NCBI GenBank assembly: GCA_029881675.1
Contig: JAOUMD010000001.1
Span: forward strand, 2,930 to 66,929
DNA from: Minisyncoccota bacterium
GTDB taxonomy: Bacteria > Patescibacteriota > Microgenomatia > UBA1400 > PJMF01
Length of the DNA stretch: 64,000 nucleotides
Direction of reading: 5' to 3'
Position 1 is the stretch's first letter. Every line of letters begins with the position of its first letter. The notes under the pieces are model-generated. The model saw only the letters and a program-made list of their open reading frames with translations. It had not been told where the DNA came from and searched no databases. Both the position numbers and the translations under genes were made by a program. Shown here one piece after another: positions 4,673-18,457 of this stretch.

Positions 4673-4879
4673 ATGTCAGACAAATATAAACCACCGTATC
4701 AAACAAAATTTAAACCAGGAGATAGTGTCAAATATGATAATAAACTCTGGAAAATTGACGGGTGGTGTTTACTATCAGGTAGTGAACATGCTTATGATAT
4801 TAGTACCCCTAGTGGTAAAGGTTTATACATTAAGGGTGTAAAAATTAGTGAAGGCGACAAATACTTCTCCAAAGCCTAA
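4673..4879 (+). CDS. Hypothetical small protein (68 aa)
   Basis: ORF only; 'FKPGDSVKYDNKLWKIDGW' resembles small DUF2158/YodC-like proteins (weak). Ends 4 nt inside the convergent metK. Confidence 0.4.
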   Translation: MSDKYKPPYQTKFKPGDSVKYDNKLWKIDGWCLLSGSEHAYDISTPSGKGLYIKGVKISEGDKYFSKA

Positions 4880-5994
4880 ACCTTCTTCACCACCTTCTCC
4901 CAACTAAACCCATTCCTACCAAAGTGCCCATAAGCAGCTGTTTCTAAAAACTGTGGTCTTTGTAGCTTAAGTTTCTTTATTATTCCACTTACAGATGTAT
5001 CAATTAGTTTCTGGGCAAAGTCGTTAATCTTCTTTGCGGAGACTTTATTTGTCCCAAAGGTCTCAACTTCTTGCATTAATGGTTTCTTAATTCCAATAGA
5101 GTAGGCCAACCTAACTTCTGCTTTCTTAGCTAAACCATGAGCAACAATATTCTTAGCAATATATCTTGCTGCATATGCTCCTGATCTATCTACTTTAGTA
5201 GAATCCTTTCCTGAAAAAGCTCCACCACCCACTCTGGCATAACCACCATAAGTATCTACAATTATCTTTCTACCGGTAAGTCCAGCATCAGAAGTAGGAC
5301 CACCGATATGCCAGACTCCAGTCCCATTCACAATTAAATCTTTAGGACCAATTGAGAATCCGTATTTATCTAAAACAAAGTTAACTACCTGTGAGAGGAT
5401 ATCGACTTTGACATCAGATAATTTAATTTCTTCATCATGAGGGACAGCAATGACTACCTTGGTTACCTCTGATGGTTTATCATTAATATACTTAACACTA
5501 ACCTGTGTTTTTCCATCTGGTCTCAAGTAGGGAAGAATATTCTTTTCTCTAACTTCATCTAGTCTCATTGCTAATTGTTGAGCCAGTTCAATTGGAAGAG
5601 GCATGAAATTCTTTGTCTCATCACAAGCAAAACCAAACATCATCCCTTGGTCTCCAGCCCCTTGATCATCTACTCCTGTGGCTATTTCACTTGATTGCTG
5701 GTGAATATTTACAATGATGGGGGACTTAGTAGTAAACTTAAATCTAGGATCATCAAAGCCTAGCCTTTTGATCTCTCTTCTTGCTATCTTCTTATAATCA
5801 ACTTTCTTTCCTTGGTAGTTAACTTCACCAGCTAGAACTATTTGATCACTACTAACTAATGTCTCTACAGCTACTCTTCCTTTAGGGTCACGTTTAAGAA
5901 TCTCATCTAAAATAGCGTCAGAAATTTGATCTGCAATCTTATCTGGATGACCTGCACAAACAGATTCTGAAGTGAATATATATTCATTTGGCAT
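4876..5994 (-). CDS. metK: S-adenosylmethionine synthetase
   Basis: 'FTSESVCAGHPDKIADQISDAILDEIL', 'GAGDQGMMFGFA', 'GGGAFSGKDSTKVDRSGAYAARYIAKNIVA' are canonical MetK motifs. 372 aa. Confidence 0.95.
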   Translation of the reverse strand: MPNEYIFTSESVCAGHPDKIADQISDAILDEILKRDPKGRVAVETLVSSDQIVLAGEVNYQGKKVDYKKIARREIKRLGFDDPRFKFTTKSPIIVNIHQQSSEIATGVDDQGAGDQGMMFGFACDETKNFMPLPIELAQQLAMRLDEVREKNILPYLRPDGKTQVSVKYINDKPSEVTKVVIAVPHDEEIKLSDVKVDILSQVVNFVLDKYGFSIGPKDLIVNGTGVWHIGGPTSDAGLTGRKIIVDTYGGYARVGGGAFSGKDSTKVDRSGAYAARYIAKNIVAHGLAKKAEVRLAYSIGIKKPLMQEVETFGTNKVSAKKINDFAQKLIDTSVSGIIKKLKLQRPQFLETAAYGHFGRNGFSWEKVVKKV

Positions 5995-6044
5995 AAAAAA
6001 ACCTCCTATGTACTTAAGAGGAGGTAACTATTATTTATTTTGTC

Positions 6045-6142
6045 TTACGACCACATCTTTCCCTCTTAAGTGAATTGGGCACCGTGTCCTTGCCAGAGGC
6101 TCGGTTGCCGGGTGAATTGCTTCACCACTCTTGATGTATATA
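6045..6142 (-). promoter_or_regulatory. SAM-I-family (S-box) riboswitch aptamer in the metK 5' leader. The expression platform continues to about 5995, a CCUCCU...AGGAGG hairpin plus U7 that sequesters the SD immediately before the AUG.
   Basis: Minus-strand RNA reads 'UACAUCAAGAGUGGUGAAGCAAUUCACCCGGCAACCGAGCCUCUGGCAAGGACACGGUGCCCAAUUCACUUAAGAGGGAAAGAUGUGG'. It matches the SAM-I core 'AUCAAGAG.GGUG...CCCGGCAACC...GGUGCCAAUUCC...GAAAGAUG' with P1 closing CAUC/GAUG. P2 is shortened (GGUGAA-GCAA-UUCACC), reminiscent of SAM-I/IV variants. Confidence 0.7.
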
Positions 6143-6224: not shown

Positions 6225-6470
6225 ATGTACCAAAAAATAGGAGAAAAAATTAAAGTGGCAGGTGTATACAAAGACTATACCTTTCAACCATTTAAATTTC
6301 AGTGGAATGGGCGGCAATTAAAGATTGATAAGATCACTTTGGTTTCTAATATAAAAAATGGTCTTATAAAAAAACGTCTTTATAGCGTCATGATTGGCAA
6401 CGATATCTTTCGCCTACTCTTTGATAGAGAATCAGAGTCTTGGACCATAGATGAAGTCTGGGTTGATTAA
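6225..6470 (+). CDS. Hypothetical small protein translationally coupled to the Y-family polymerase gene (possible polymerase accessory factor)
   Basis: 81-aa ORF ending 2 nt before dinB. An AGGAG at 6240-6244 suggests the true start may be the GTG at about 6256. No recognisable domain. Confidence 0.45.
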   Translation: MYQKIGEKIKVAGVYKDYTFQPFKFQWNGRQLKIDKITLVSNIKNGLIKKRLYSVMIGNDIFRLLFDRESESWTIDEVWVD

Positions 6471-6472
6471 AT

Positions 6473-7717
6473 ATGCCCGACATTAATTGGCAAAACAAAA
6501 TCCTACACATTGATATTAATTCCTATTTTGCCGCCCTCTTACAACAAGAAAATCCCAAGTTAAGAAATAAACCAGTTGGAATAGTCAAAGATGTGGGGAG
6601 AACTTGTATCATTGCTGCTAGTAAAGAAGCTAAGAAACTTGGGGTTAGTACTGGAAGTAATGCTTATGAAGCAAAGCTAAAAGCACCTGACATAGTCTTA
6701 GTACCAGCTCAATTTGATCGCTATCTAGATGCAACCAAAAGACTTAAGAAAATCTTTATGAATGTTAGCCCTAATATTTATATTTATTCCTTAGATGAAG
6801 CCTTTGTTAATATTTCTCACTGTCAGAAATATCTTTATCCAGATGTAGAACAATTAGCAAAAAATATCCAACAACAAATTCAACTAGAACTAGGGGAGTG
6901 GGTAACAAGTAATGTTGGTATTAGTGCTAATTACTTTCTAGCCAAAATTGCCTCAAATATTGCTCCCAAAGGAACTGTCTTAACCATTGATGAAAACAAT
7001 CTTGATGGAATCTTAGCTGAAGTACCTTTTGCAGAAGTTTGTGGAGTTGGCTTAAGATTAGAAAAGAAATTAAAAAAACTTGGTGTCACTAATCCATACC
7101 AGATTAGATTCTACTCTCAAGCAGAACTAGAACTATTCTTTGGACCATTCTGGTCTAGAGAGTTATTAAAAATTGCCTACGGAGAAGAAACTAATCATCT
7201 AGCTTTATTAGAGAAACCGCTTAGTCAAATGAAAAGTGTCAGTCGCTCTATCACTGGCTATCATCTCTACGATGATGAGAAAGAAATTAAAGCCATTATT
7301 TATAATCTAATTAGTGAGGTGATACATAAAGTGAGAAAAATGAACTTGGCAGGTAGGCAAGTCAGTATTTTCTTAAACGGCCAAGATCAATTTTGGGCAG
7401 ATCATCTTACCGTTAAACACTTTATTAATCATGAACAAGAAATGTTTGAAATAATTTATAACAAACTATATAAGAACTGGAAGAGACATTTTAAAATTAT
7501 TAAATTTGGAGTGAGGATGTCACTACTAGAAAAGATGGGCCAAAATTCATTATTACCAAATTGGCAAAAGACAGAAAAGATTCATCAAGCTATGGATGAT
7601 GTGAATGATAAGTATGGCTTATTTACCCTAAGAACTGGAGCGCTACTTAATCAACCAATCATTAAACCAGAAGTAACTGGTTTCTTAGGGGATAGGATAT
7701 ATCAGTTAGGAGAATAA
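6473..7717 (+). CDS. dinB: DNA polymerase IV (Y-family translesion polymerase)
   Basis: 'ILHIDINSYFAALLQ...NKPVGIV' (the catalytic D-x-D/Y-F region), 'SLDEAFVNIS', 'GISANYFLAKIAS'. 414 aa. Confidence 0.85.
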   Translation: MPDINWQNKILHIDINSYFAALLQQENPKLRNKPVGIVKDVGRTCIIAASKEAKKLGVSTGSNAYEAKLKAPDIVLVPAQFDRYLDATKRLKKIFMNVSPNIYIYSLDEAFVNISHCQKYLYPDVEQLAKNIQQQIQLELGEWVTSNVGISANYFLAKIASNIAPKGTVLTIDENNLDGILAEVPFAEVCGVGLRLEKKLKKLGVTNPYQIRFYSQAELELFFGPFWSRELLKIAYGEETNHLALLEKPLSQMKSVSRSITGYHLYDDEKEIKAIIYNLISEVIHKVRKMNLAGRQVSIFLNGQDQFWADHLTVKHFINHEQEMFEIIYNKLYKNWKRHFKIIKFGVRMSLLEKMGQNSLLPNWQKTEKIHQAMDDVNDKYGLFTLRTGALLNQPIIKPEVTGFLGDRIYQLGE

Positions 7718-15581: not shown

Positions 15582-15756
15582 TTCCTATTACAAATTAAAA
15601 TTAAATCCGTTCACAGCAGGAGTCGCGCCTTGCAAAACTTGTCTAACAAGTACGGAGCTTCACAAAATTGAAGCCGAGAGAATCTCGTTAAAATTCAAAC
15701 TCTTAATCGCTAAATAGTAGAGAGAGTCATAAAGTAAATAGCAGTGATGTTATTTT

Positions 15757-15828
15757 AAATCAGAGTGGTACCACGAAGTTACTTCGTCTCTGTTCTTATA
15801 AATATTAAGAATAGAACGGAGTTTTTTT
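15757..15828 (+). promoter_or_regulatory. T-box-like leader (antiterminator/terminator) preceding argH-argG. Stem I should lie between about 15590 and 15750 but was not resolved.
   Basis: 'AAAUCAGAGUGGUACCACG' matches the T-box sequence AAUUAGGGUGGUACCGCG at 15/18 positions. An antiterminator is drawable: CAGAG, a 7-nt UGGUACC bulge, ACGAAG-UUA-CUUCGU, CUCUG. A competing helix CUCUGUUCU...AGAACGGAG plus U7 runs straight into the AUG and would act as a terminator or SD sequester. Confidence 0.5.
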
Positions 15829-17247
15829 ATGTCAAAAACAGTAAAACTGTGGGACAAAGGTACCAAATCAAATTCCATAATTGAAAACTACTTAGCAGGA
15901 GATGATATCTTCTTGGACCAACAGTTAGTTCAATTTGATGTTTACGGATCTTTGGCTCACTGCAAAATGTTATATCAAAATAATTTAATTGAGAAAATTG
16001 ACTTTGACCACTTAACTAAAGGTCTTAAACAAATCTTAAAGTTAAATAAAGATGGTCAATTTAACCTTTCACTTTCAGATGAAGATATTCATACCAAAGT
16101 AGAGAACTACTTAACAGAAATATACCCAGAATCTGGAGGTAAACTTCATACTGGAAGATCAAGAAATGATCAGGTATTAGTGGATATTAGACTTTACTCT
16201 AAGGATCAATTAACTGATGTTATTAAATTAGTAATAAATCTAATAAGTGATTTCCAAATCTTTTCAAAAAAACATGAGTTCTTGCCCATGGCTGGTTACA
16301 CTCATATGCAACAAGCAATGCTTTCATCAGTGGGTCTTTGGGCAGATTCTTTCACTCAAAGCTTACTTGACGACCTGACAGTTGTTCAAACTGCCTATGA
16401 CTTAAATGATCAGTCTCCACTTGGCTCTGGGGCAGCGTATGGAGTGTCTCTACCTATAGATAGAGAACTAACTGCTAAACTTCTAGGTTTTAAAAAAGTA
16501 CAAACCAATGCTTTATATTGTCAGAACTCAAAAGGAAAAATTGAATCAACTATAATCCATAGTTTAAGTTCAATCATGAACACCTTGAGTAAGTTTGCTC
16601 AAGACATCTTACTTTTTACTACCAGTGAATTTAATTATTTCTCCGTTCCTAAAAGCTTAACCACTGGAAGTAGTATCATGCCTCAAAAAAATAATCATGA
16701 TGCAATGGAACTGCTGAGAGGAAAAACAAAAGTTATTCAAAGCTATTACTCACTAGTCAGTTCAATCAACAGTGATTTACCGTCAGGATATAACAGAGAT
16801 ACACAGTTAATTAAACAACCTCTCTTTGAGAGCTTCAAAATAACTAAAGAATCTCTTCAAGTGGTGAGTTTATATGTTAATTCTTTGATACCAAATAAGG
16901 AAAATATTAAAAAGAATATATCCAAAGAACTATTTGCAGCTCATCATGCCTATCAGTTAATGAAAAAGAATAATTGGTCATTTAGAAAAGCCTATTCTTA
17001 TGTTGGTAAAAACTTAGATAAGATCCCTAACTATGACCCAATTAAAGTTCTCAAAGAAACTACTACATTGGGTGGACCAGGGAATTTGCAATTAGATTCT
17101 TTAGACAAAAACTTACTCCGTCAGTCCTTAACTTTGTCCCAAAGAAAACAAAACACTCATCAAACAATGAGTAAAATAAACATAAATAATTTAAGAAATA
17201 AAAATAATGAAAAAAATCACACAATATATAAAAGTTGCTTCACATGA
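15829..17247 (+). CDS. argH: Argininosuccinate lyase
   Basis: 'GGKLHTGRSRNDQVLVDIRLY', 'GYTHMQQAM', 'GSGAAYGVSLPIDRELTAKLLGF' are the fumarase/ASL family signatures. Confidence 0.9.
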   Translation: MSKTVKLWDKGTKSNSIIENYLAGDDIFLDQQLVQFDVYGSLAHCKMLYQNNLIEKIDFDHLTKGLKQILKLNKDGQFNLSLSDEDIHTKVENYLTEIYPESGGKLHTGRSRNDQVLVDIRLYSKDQLTDVIKLVINLISDFQIFSKKHEFLPMAGYTHMQQAMLSSVGLWADSFTQSLLDDLTVVQTAYDLNDQSPLGSGAAYGVSLPIDRELTAKLLGFKKVQTNALYCQNSKGKIESTIIHSLSSIMNTLSKFAQDILLFTTSEFNYFSVPKSLTTGSSIMPQKNNHDAMELLRGKTKVIQSYYSLVSSINSDLPSGYNRDTQLIKQPLFESFKITKESLQVVSLYVNSLIPNKENIKKNISKELFAAHHAYQLMKKNNWSFRKAYSYVGKNLDKIPNYDPIKVLKETTTLGGPGNLQLDSLDKNLLRQSLTLSQRKQNTHQTMSKININNLRNKNNEKNHTIYKSCFT

Positions 17248-18457
17248 AGTAAAAGAAAAAAAAGTAGACAAAGTAGTCCTACTGTATTCAGGAGGACTGG
17301 ATACTTCAGTGATGCTCAAATGGCTACAAGACTCATATCAGGCCAAAGTAATTGCACTCACAATAGACATTGGCCAACAAGCTGATGATCTTGAAGAGAT
17401 CAAACAAAAAGCTCTAAATCTAGGTGCCCACAAAGCATATACGCTAGATTGTAAGGATGAGTTTGCTAATGAATATATTGCCAAAGGGATTAAAGCTAAC
17501 GCTTCATACCAAGGTCAGTATCACTTAAGCACTCCAATCGGCAGACCTTTACTTGCAAAAAAAGCAGTAGAAATTGCAAAGAAAGAAGGAGCTCTAGTTA
17601 TTGCCCATGGCTGTACTGGAAAGGGAAATGACCAGGTCAGAATTGAGTCATCAATTCTTTGTTATGACTCTTCCATGAAGATCATTGCCCCTGTAAGAGA
17701 GTGGGCGATGGGTAGAGATGAGGAGTTAAAGTATGCAAAGAAACATAATATTCCAACTCCTCAAGCTCAACAAGGAGTCTCATATTCCTGGGATGACAAC
17801 ATGTGGGGAGTCACTGGAGAAGGTGGGGAAATAGAAGATCCTAAACTTGAACCAAATTATGAAAAAATTCTTCAGGTATGCAAGATTCCAGAAAAGGCAT
17901 CAAGTAAAGCAGAGTACCTTGAGATTACTTTTGATAAAGGGGTTCCTACTCATTTAAACAATAAAAAGGAAAAACTATCTAATTTAATTATTAAGTTAAA
18001 TAAAATAGGTGGTAAACATGGAGTAGGAATTACAACCTTAATTGAAGATAGATTGGTTGGTCTTAAAGTCAGAGGAGTTTATGAAGCCCCTGGTGCTGCC
18101 ATTATTACCAAAGCACATTATGACTTAGAAAAAATTGTCTGTACTCAAACAGAGAATGAGTTCAAAGAAATAATAGATAAAAAATGGGCTTACCTTTGTT
18201 ACTCAGCTAAATGGTTAGAACCAACCATGAGCCATCTCAATAGCTATATTGAGTCAGTTAGTAAAAAGGTAACTGGGGTAGTAAAACTGAAGTTATTCAA
18301 AGGAAACATTACCATTGTTTCAGTAAGTTCACCAAACTCTCTCTTTGATGCTGATTTAGCTACCTTTGATAAGAATAGTAAGTTCAATCAAAACTCTAGT
18401 GCAGGGTTTATTGAGATCTATTCATTAGCGATGAAGACGGCTAATTTGAAGAAGTAG
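17207..18457 (+). CDS. argG: Argininosuccinate synthase
   Basis: 'KVVLLYSGGLDTSVMLKWL' PP-loop and 'VIAHGCTGKGNDQVR' signature. Overlaps the argH 3' end by 41 nt. Confidence 0.9.
   Translation: MKKITQYIKVASHEVKEKKVDKVVLLYSGGLDTSVMLKWLQDSYQAKVIALTIDIGQQADDLEEIKQKALNLGAHKAYTLDCKDEFANEYIAKGIKANASYQGQYHLSTPIGRPLLAKKAVEIAKKEGALVIAHGCTGKGNDQVRIESSILCYDSSMKIIAPVREWAMGRDEELKYAKKHNIPTPQAQQGVSYSWDDNMWGVTGEGGEIEDPKLEPNYEKILQVCKIPEKASSKAEYLEITFDKGVPTHLNNKKEKLSNLIIKLNKIGGKHGVGITTLIEDRLVGLKVRGVYEAPGAAIITKAHYDLEKIVCTQTENEFKEIIDKKWAYLCYSAKWLEPTMSHLNSYIESVSKKVTGVVKLKLFKGNITIVSVSSPNSLFDADLATFDKNSKFNQNSSAGFIEIYSLAMKTANLKK

Follow-up and report, generated by a model that had tools for sequence, protein, structure and literature searches.

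A predicted SAM-I/IV-type riboswitch in a Patescibacteria metK leader, with a junction helix that may double as the switching strand

Here, we describe the leader of metK, the gene for S-adenosylmethionine (SAM) synthetase, in a 64-kb stretch of DNA from a Minisyncoccota bacterium (the whole stretch is called the window below). The gene lies on the minus strand at 4876-5994, with its AUG at 5994-5992, and encodes 372 amino acids (aa); all three S-AdoMet synthetase Pfam domains match its product (E values from 2e-60 to 3.5e-34), so that the gene and strand named in an earlier note on this DNA stand. The leader, on the same strand, consists of a riboswitch-like aptamer (6137-6042), an A-rich linker (6041-6026) and a hairpin (6025-6001) that runs through seven uridines into the start codon and carries a Shine-Dalgarno (SD) sequence in its 3' arm. 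We propose that the leader is probably a switch of the SAM-I/IV type that turns metK off in response to SAM, and in which this one hairpin would serve both to terminate transcription and to hide the SD. What has been computed is how well the leader matches the family, which two helices compete, and how stable and how conserved these helices are; from this we infer that SAM binds, in which direction the switch works, and what shares transcription and translation have in it.

Family assignment

An Rfam scan of the window matched 6142-6026 (minus strand) to SAM-I/IV (RF01725) with 57.0 bits (gathering score, 41.1 bits) and E = 9.9e-07, a value that covers the whole 64-kb window and 4227 families. 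This was the sole match above the gathering score in the window, and it bears out the clan-level covariance-model match that the earlier note had anticipated. In a permissive scan of the region SAM-I/IV again ranked first in the clan; two weaker matches from the clan were suppressed, and SAM-IV (RF00634) scored below SAM-I/IV. When the search was confined to the junction (6146-6051), SAM-I/IV was still the best in the clan at 39.3 bits and, because it outscored the classical SAM-I model (RF00162) there, the latter stays below 39.3 bits at the metK leader and misses its cut-off of 44.4. Taken alone, the folding energy of the complete leader is unremarkable (z = -1.85).

The SAM-clan core (AAGAG in the junction strand J1/2, CAACC, GGUGC, and A-GAU closing helix P1) is in every part identical to the RF01725 consensus, identical to the crystallised T. 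tengcongensis SAM-I sequence (PMC5393176), and invariant across 18 relatives. The strings that had been quoted from this leader on the minus strand upstream of metK were all located where they had been placed: AUCAAGAG at 6135-6128, CCCGGCAACC at 6112-6103, GGUGCC followed by CAAUUC at 6083-6072, and GAAAGAUG at 6061-6054. Taken together with the architecture set out below, the element is, as judged from its sequence, a genuine SAM-clan riboswitch of the SAM-I/IV rather than the S-box type. The label "SAM-I-type" used in the earlier note holds in the broad sense, since SAM-I, SAM-IV and SAM-I/IV have been grouped as types of one general SAM-I class (McCown et al. 2017), and fails in the narrow one, with classical RF00162 under its cut-off and RF01725 matching instead.

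Aptamer architecture

By itself and unconstrained, the aptamer (6137-6042) folds at its minimum free energy (MFE) into a four-way junction of P1, P2, P3 and P4 followed by P5, so that the four-way junction previously predicted for this leader arises unaided. The same unconstrained fold is obtained for 20 of 21 family members. In the Rfam alignment and the aptamer-segment MFE, and with support from covariation, P1 pairs ACAUC (6137-6133) with GAUGU (6057-6053). It leads into J1/2, the conserved core strand AAGAG(U) (6132-6127), and then into P2 (6126-6111), which in both Rfam and the MFE is an unsplit 6-bp hairpin, GGUGAA-GCAA-UUCACC, with neither an internal loop nor a kink-turn (K-turn); the compact P2 noted earlier is thus recovered as described. 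J2/3 and P3 (CGGCAACC ... GGUGCC, 6110-6078; Rfam, MFE and covariation) equal the consensus in their core and add a distal extension, CCU/AGG, capped by the loop L3, CUGGCA (6096-6091). J3/4 (CAA, 6077-6075) is followed by a miniature P4 within the junction (UUC-A-CUU / AAG / AGG-GAA, 6074-6059), which appears in the unconstrained MFE, and a single nucleotide, A6058, forms J4/1. Directly 3' of P1 stands P5, G-GUC-GUAA-GAC (6052-6042, the stem-loop itself being 6051-6042; Rfam alignment and covariation), and after it the 16-nt A-rich linker AAAAUAAAUAAUAGUU (6041-6026) occupies the place where other members carry the 3' strand of the pseudoknot PK-2. The miniature P4 and the P5 after P1 refine the earlier description.

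How does this compare with known SAM riboswitches? The family features were taken from PMC6890682, PMC8525861, PMC5393176 and PMC2864571. SAM-I/IV was first described as "SAM-I-IV-variant", with a P2 without an internal loop (Weinberg et al. 2010), and is characterised by an undivided P2, no pseudoknot PK-1 and the presence of P4, as opposed to SAM-IV with its split P2, PK-1, PK-2 and no junction P4 (PMC6890682). The env87 sequence (PMC5393176) parses in the same way as our leader, with an unsplit P2, a junction hairpin CACCG-GAGA-CGGUG (P4) and a hairpin after P1, and in it GUCC pairs with GGAC in L3 to form PK-2; the P4 comparison rests on this crystallised member, P4 being absent from the Rfam RF01725 consensus.

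The metK leader accordingly shares with SAM-I/IV the model score, the core, the unsplit P2 without PK-1, the junction P4 as in env87, a P5 directly 3' of P1 (here followed by CAAAA) and a SAM-related gene downstream. It departs from that type in its very short P4, which would double as an anti-terminator strand, in an extra conserved distal extension of P3, in a separate terminator/SD hairpin between P5 and the AUG, and in showing no canonical PK-2, that is, no complementarity between the P3 loop and a strand 3' of P5. Apart from this absence of the class's usual pseudoknot, it is an ordinary SAM-I/IV element. With SAM-I (the S-box) it has in common the ligand-pocket sequences, the four-way junction with P4, metK as a typical target, and the logic of terminator versus anti-terminator with part of the aptamer as the anti-anti-terminator; unlike SAM-I, it has no K-turn in P2, no PK-1 (L2 with J3/4), a model score below the gathering score and an extra hairpin after P1. 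SAM-IV offers the same clan and core and a hairpin after P1, but the leader's P2 is unsplit, neither PK-1 nor PK-2 is evident in it, and P4 is present. In classical S-box riboswitches the anti-terminator strand derives from the 3' strand of P1, whereas in the metK leader it would come from P4.

Two further pairings within the aptamer were considered. J3/4 contains nothing complementary to the P2 loop GCAA. The 8-nt sequence CAAUUCAC stands as a direct repeat at 6119-6112 (P2 loop and 3' arm) and at 6077-6070 (J3/4 and the 5' arm of P4), and the 5' arm of P2 could pair with either copy. A PK-1-like pairing through this repeat was rejected, as the repeat is not kept in relatives with a different P2, and it is probably incidental. 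A pairing of L3 with AGAGG of P4 or with the SD, by way of CCUCU in the window's L3, was likewise rejected, the L3 of relatives having no CCUCU.

Comparative support for the fold

Related metK leaders compared with the window carry L-numbered labels below (L001, L209 and so on; the loops are L2, L3 and L5). Each of 11 newly fetched close relatives gives 45-61 bits with RF01725 upstream of the orthologous metK and the leader L081 gives 53 bits, while L001, L003, L083 and L086-L088, which are more distant Patescibacteria of like design, fall below the Rfam threshold. On the 11 close relatives, 95.8% of the cells of the proposed structure are paired and nine pairs have changed on both sides; the covariation score of this close-clade alignment was reached by none of 500 shuffles, and controls with slid partners pair in 35-48% of cells. 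P1, P2, P3 and P5 also emerge from RNAalifold on 18 sequences, where 13 of 20 pairs carry compensatory changes.

The individual helices bear this out to differing degrees. Four of the five P1 pairs vary yet stay paired across 18 relatives, three of them with changes on both sides, and P2 shows both-side changes in four of seven pairs among the 11 close relatives, with an L2 loop that is hypervariable in length and sequence. For P5 the outer pairs with both-side changes number two of three in the close clade and three of three across the 18 relatives. P4 was judged from per-sequence folds, this tiny hairpin shifting register between lineages in MAFFT alignments; its arms differ among lineages at the same position (GUCC/GGAC, UCCU/AGGA, CUCC/GGAG, UGCA/UGCA and UGCU/GGCA). 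L002 and L093 have a three-way junction with a 5-nt junction strand in place of P4.

Conservation of the leader tracks metK, since two close relatives have another gene upstream of metK and still keep the leader. The nearest MetK homologues come from metagenome-assembled genomes (MAGs) of Patescibacteria (the candidate phyla radiation, CPR), for example Daviesbacteria, Roizmanbacteria and Levyibacteriota, and relatives in a large protein collection reach 93% identity.

A search of viral contigs for the core pattern (GGCAACC..GGTGC..AGAGGNNNGAT) gave 38 matches, mostly coding, unrelated, and without AAGAG or P1, which were set aside as chance. The metK leaders L004-L008, from Patescibacteria MAGs of which three are labelled Saccharibacteria, carry classical SAM-I (RF00162, 50-57 bits; L008 resembles SAM-I by eye at a score under the RF00162 threshold), with a K-turn-type P2 and a CUAG:CUAG PK-1, about 60-220 nt upstream of metK. 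As these leaders have SAM-I instead of SAM-I/IV, two SAM-clan types would control metK within the Patescibacteria.

Expression platform and competing helix

The hairpin ahead of metK (6025-6001) pairs ACCUCCU (6025-6019) with AGGAGGU (6007-6001) across an 11-nt loop and is found by the fold, the pattern scan and the repeat search alike. Its 3' arm wholly contains AGGAGG (6007-6002), the only plausible SD of metK, at 7 nt from the AUG, and the U7 tract (6001-5995) serves at once as the tail of the putative terminator and as the spacer between SD and AUG, which begins at 5994. The pattern scan called a terminator-like site at 6021-6002 plus U7 (one found, 0.1 expected from shuffles), and a repeat finder independently returned the 7-nt perfect arms together with a 17-nt, 82% inverted repeat containing the competing helix described below. 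A terminator-like hairpin occluding the SD is what the earlier note had read here, and the predicted hairpin has the form of an intrinsic terminator, a G+C-containing stem directly followed by a U tract. This layout, with the SD in the 3' arm and the U tract running into the AUG, is that of other dual terminator/SD-sequestrator platforms and has nothing distinctive about it.

The alternative pairing suggested through the upstream string CUUAAGAGG also exists, and is longer than that string. CUUAAGAGG (6070-6062) is complementary to CCUCUUAAG (6021-6013), and in full the competing helix joins ACUUAAGAGGG (6071-6061; supported by MFE, duplex energy and conservation) to UCCUCUUAAGU (6022-6012; MFE and conservation) over 11 bp. 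Its 5' strand is the loop and 3' arm of P4 and its 3' strand is part of the 5' arm and the 5' half of the loop of the hairpin; it is this placement of CUUAAGAGG in P4, not seen before, that makes it a candidate switch element. In the window the duplex has -15.5 kcal/mol against -8.3 kcal/mol for the hairpin alone, and in the close clade the values are -14 to -16 and -5.5 to -11.8 kcal/mol, respectively. The MFE of the full leader (-39.9 kcal/mol) includes the competing helix, as does that of a transcript cut just before the 3' arm of the hairpin, and the state with aptamer plus hairpin lies at -37.1, 2.8 higher. By this energy model the 2.8 kcal/mol gap could plausibly be bridged by ligand binding.

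Both helices are kept in relatives. In 11 of them all 118 of 118 cells of the competing helix are paired, the only changes being A-U to G-U and G-U to G-C, and the 5' half of the hairpin loop (CUUAAGU) is invariant, whereas its 3' half and the L2 and L5 loops vary. The hairpin itself has both-side changes in two pairs. Further afield, in L210, where GCUAA(A)GAGG faces CCUCUUAGC, two pairs differ from those of the window by double compensatory changes, and in L088 and L209 the competing helix reaches into the 3' strand of P1. Across nine lineages, two of them close relatives, P4-region and hairpin strands of the same lineage bind better than cross-lineage pairs (permutation p = 0.002).

The output end of the leader varies as well. 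A run of 5-7 U follows the stem in 12 of 13 close relatives, L209 being without it, and the window and most close relatives have a hairpin with both U tract and SD features. In L001 the same hairpin and its U7 are separated from the AUG by about 110 nt; at that distance the hairpin can only terminate, just as that of L209, having no U tract, can only hide the SD. Between the L001 terminator and the metK ATG there is an insert of about 110 nt (2880-2985 in DATKGO010000065.1) with a long inverted repeat GGAACAAATTTTTTCCTAGCA ... TGCTAGAAAAAATTTCGTTCC; it could represent a small mobile element or another regulatory hairpin.

Upstream of the leader, a promoter-like site was found by pattern scan at 6174-6146, with TTGAAA (6174-6169), a 17-nt spacer and TG-TAGTAT (-10 box at 6151-6146), giving 9 of 12 matches plus the TG extension; the scan found two such sites where shuffled sequence would be expected to yield 1.7, and on its own the match lacks significance. 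In the leaders of relatives a -10-like box stands 8-12 nt upstream of ACAUCAAGAG. By this predicted promoter the transcript probably starts a few nt 5' of P1.

The PK-2 pseudoknot

PK-2 is where the window parts from its class. The window's L3 (CUGGCA) pairs with the linker AAAAUAAAUAAUAGUU at -1.6 kcal/mol, no better than with shuffled linkers (fraction 0.33), and neither the window nor any of 12 close relatives shows canonical PK-2 complementarity in the place usual for it. PK-2 is clear in four more distant Patescibacteria relatives (shuffle fraction 0.01 or less): in L084, UAAAAGUU with AACUUUUA over 8 bp; in L085, over 7 bp; in L002, AAGCUU with AAGCUU next to the AUG over 6 bp; and in L083, over 5 bp. 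The close clade has instead a conserved distal P3 extension, CCGAGCC...GGACACGG.

One option is that PK-2 has been re-targeted to the start codon, with UGGCA of L3 (6095-6091) pairing with UGCCA (5993-5989, positions +2 to +6), so that SAM binding would directly occlude the start codon too. The pairing has five bp in the window and 4-7 bp in eight relatives, GGCA in L3 and AUGCC co-occur in eight sequences, and in L200 and L207, which have no GGCA, L3 is instead complementary to UUAUG or UAAUG. Nine of nine MPN-type genes use CCA as codon 2, whereas Pro codon 17 of these genes takes all four synonymous forms, and in the canonical L002 PK-2 has its 3' strand immediately beside the AUG. Set against this, 5-15% of random 14-nt coding windows pair with L3 equally well (five sequences), the sequences that share GGCA and UGCC are related by descent, nothing convincing is seen in L206, L081 and L210, and A-rich early codons are selected for other reasons too. 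On balance we consider the re-targeting doubtful. A tentative and wider suggestion, possible at best on present sequences, is that the window and its 12 closest relatives form a Patescibacteria subtype of SAM-I/IV in which PK-2 has been lost or moved and the 16-nt P4 does the switching.

Other observations in the window

GC content in the 64-kb window is 33%, and tRNA genes are absent from it. metK is divergent from an 81-aa open reading frame (ORF; 6225-6470, plus strand), conserved and without a Pfam match, that is tightly coupled to a Y-family DNA polymerase gene (IMS, 6473-7717, plus strand), the stop lying at 6470 and the next ATG at 6473; the same pair also stands upstream of metK in L201-L205. 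SD-like words (GGAG, GAGG or AGGA within 21 nt upstream) precede eight of the 50 ORFs of at least 150 aa, and the AGGAGG of metK is one of very few strong SDs among the window's ORFs. Many ORFs have a TATAAT-like box 7-12 nt ahead of the ATG, and the window suggests that SD-less or leaderless mRNAs are widespread in it.

A second leader, at 15601-15828 on the plus strand, is a candidate T-box upstream of the ORFs 15829-17247 (argH, Lyase_1) and 17207-18457 (argG). In it the T-box motif AGAGUGGUACCACG precedes a 17-bp hairpin (z = -3.9), U7 and the AUG, and GGAG in the 3' arm of that hairpin gives it the same layout as the metK leader. Its Rfam T-box score is 39.2 bits against a cut-off of 93 (E 1.7e-7 on 321 nt) and its Stem I region measures 41 nt against 89 in the model, and because of this low score and far shorter Stem I it was missed by the scan at gathering threshold. 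Arg codons (AGG-A and CGC-G) occur in the putative Stem I. Elsewhere, the segment 35682-40528 contains six paralogous ORFs of about 187 aa; the minus strand carries a tandem run of four and the plus strand the other two. Three of the six have weak or near-threshold matches to nucleoside 2-deoxyribosyltransferase (PF05014).

Discussion

In light of the leader having a SAM-I/IV-type aptamer and two mutually competing helices, how might it act on metK? In the proposed mechanism, transcription would start just 5' of P1, and the aptamer would form its four-way junction and then P5. With SAM bound, P1 and P4 would be locked and the AAGAGG of the 3' half of P4 unavailable, so that ACCUCCU would pair with AGGAGGU, the hairpin would form before U7, and transcription would terminate right at the start codon; in those transcripts that reach full length, the same hairpin would bury the SD and metK would be off. 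Without SAM, the weak P4 would open and ACUUAAGAGGG would pair with UCCUCUUAAGU over 11 bp, destroying the hairpin, and both read-through and an exposed SD would allow MetK to be made. We hold such an OFF switch to be probable.

Several points weigh against it. The two-state energies leave out pseudoknots and tertiary contacts. Among the close relatives the competing helix does not covary but stays invariant, its support there being that of conservation. In L085, L003 and L083 the 5' strand of the hairpin pairs better with the 5' strand of P1 and J1/2 than with P4 (an example of such complementarity in distant lineages is CGAGAGGC with GCCUCUCG), which indicates that the family has more than one anti-terminator solution and that the P4 design is not universal. 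As a terminator the hairpin is weak (7 bp, an 11-nt loop, -8.3 kcal/mol), and with SD-like words at so few of the window's ORFs the dependence of translation on an SD is uncertain. Lastly, there is the missing canonical PK-2: because this pseudoknot goes undetected and is reported as required for the regulatory activity of env87, the window's aptamer may, by analogy, fold or bind differently from the crystallised member.

One rival reading is a switch of translation alone, in which the hairpin merely hides the SD and U7 is an A/U-rich spacer in a 33% GC genome. It is consistent with an SD lying wholly within the 3' arm at 7 nt from the AUG, with L209 retaining the hairpin without a U tract, with the weakness of the hairpin as a terminator, and with canonical members such as L002 that have no terminator and carry the 3' strand of PK-2 next to the AUG. 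Against it stand the 5-7 U found directly after the stem in 12 of 13 close relatives, the hairpin and U7 of L001 that lie too far from the AUG to hide an SD, and the terminator call at the site, and we regard it as unlikely.

The converse, an attenuator of transcription alone, would make AGGAGG mainly the 3' arm of a terminator whose hiding adds nothing. That the L001 hairpin operates far from any start codon agrees with this, as does the count of eight in 50 ORFs with an SD-like word, suggesting weak reliance on SD pairing. The spacing of SD and AUG is ideal, however, the 3' arm in the close clade is always an SD-like purine run (AGGAGG, GAGAGGAG or GAAGGGG) at 5-8 nt from the AUG, and a 150-nt leader requires an internal initiation signal; an attenuator alone is, in our estimation, rather improbable.

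A more radical possibility is that SAM binds a fold in which the 11-bp helix stands in for a pseudoknot, giving an ON switch. The helix does cross P1 topologically as PK-2 would, in an element from which canonical PK-2 is absent, but it cannot coexist with P4, a helix that arises in the aptamer segment by itself, and it consumes bases of the 3' strand of P1 in L088 and L209. To our knowledge, activation of metK by SAM would be contrary to every SAM riboswitch upstream of this gene. We consider an ON switch highly improbable. Least credible of all is a classical S-box riboswitch, for which the four-way junction including P4 and the core strings nearly identical to those of T. tengcongensis SAM-I would speak, and which is refuted at the level of family model and architecture by the RF00162 score, the P2 without internal loop or K-turn, the hypervariable L2 without a PK-1 partner, and the P5 after P1.

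The dual OFF switch of the SAM-I/IV type thus remains our proposal, and its annotation is in itself routine: a standard Rfam scan finds the element, which fits the expected feedback on SAM synthesis. What is new in the metK leader is the apparent lack of PK-2 and the proposed P4-based switch. The env87 aptamer, with which the leader has been compared, reportedly has its structure in PDB entries 4L81 and 4OQU, the work of Trausch and colleagues in 2014.

The three structurally characterised SAM-clan types all rely on a peripheral pseudoknot (PMC6890682), and the absence of PK-2 from the window's clade, if true, would provide a natural test of whether one is needed. If PK-2 has been lost, this would be a natural SAM-clan aptamer without either PK-1 or PK-2; if it has moved, the partner of L3 UGGCA would be UGCCA (+2 to +6). 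For the expression platform, P4 rather than P1 would act as the anti-anti-terminator, and one family would show three kinds of output, namely a terminator alone, SD hiding alone, and the two combined.

The value of these findings is modest and comparative, adding a well-sampled Patescibacteria lineage to a class, SAM-I/IV, known mostly from marine metagenomes. The literature searched yielded no description of a natural SAM riboswitch from Patescibacteria. Riboswitches have been proposed as candidate tools for inducible expression in Patescibacteria (PMC11665869), and natural riboswitches of the SAM-I/IV type, such as the one predicted here, could serve in that role.

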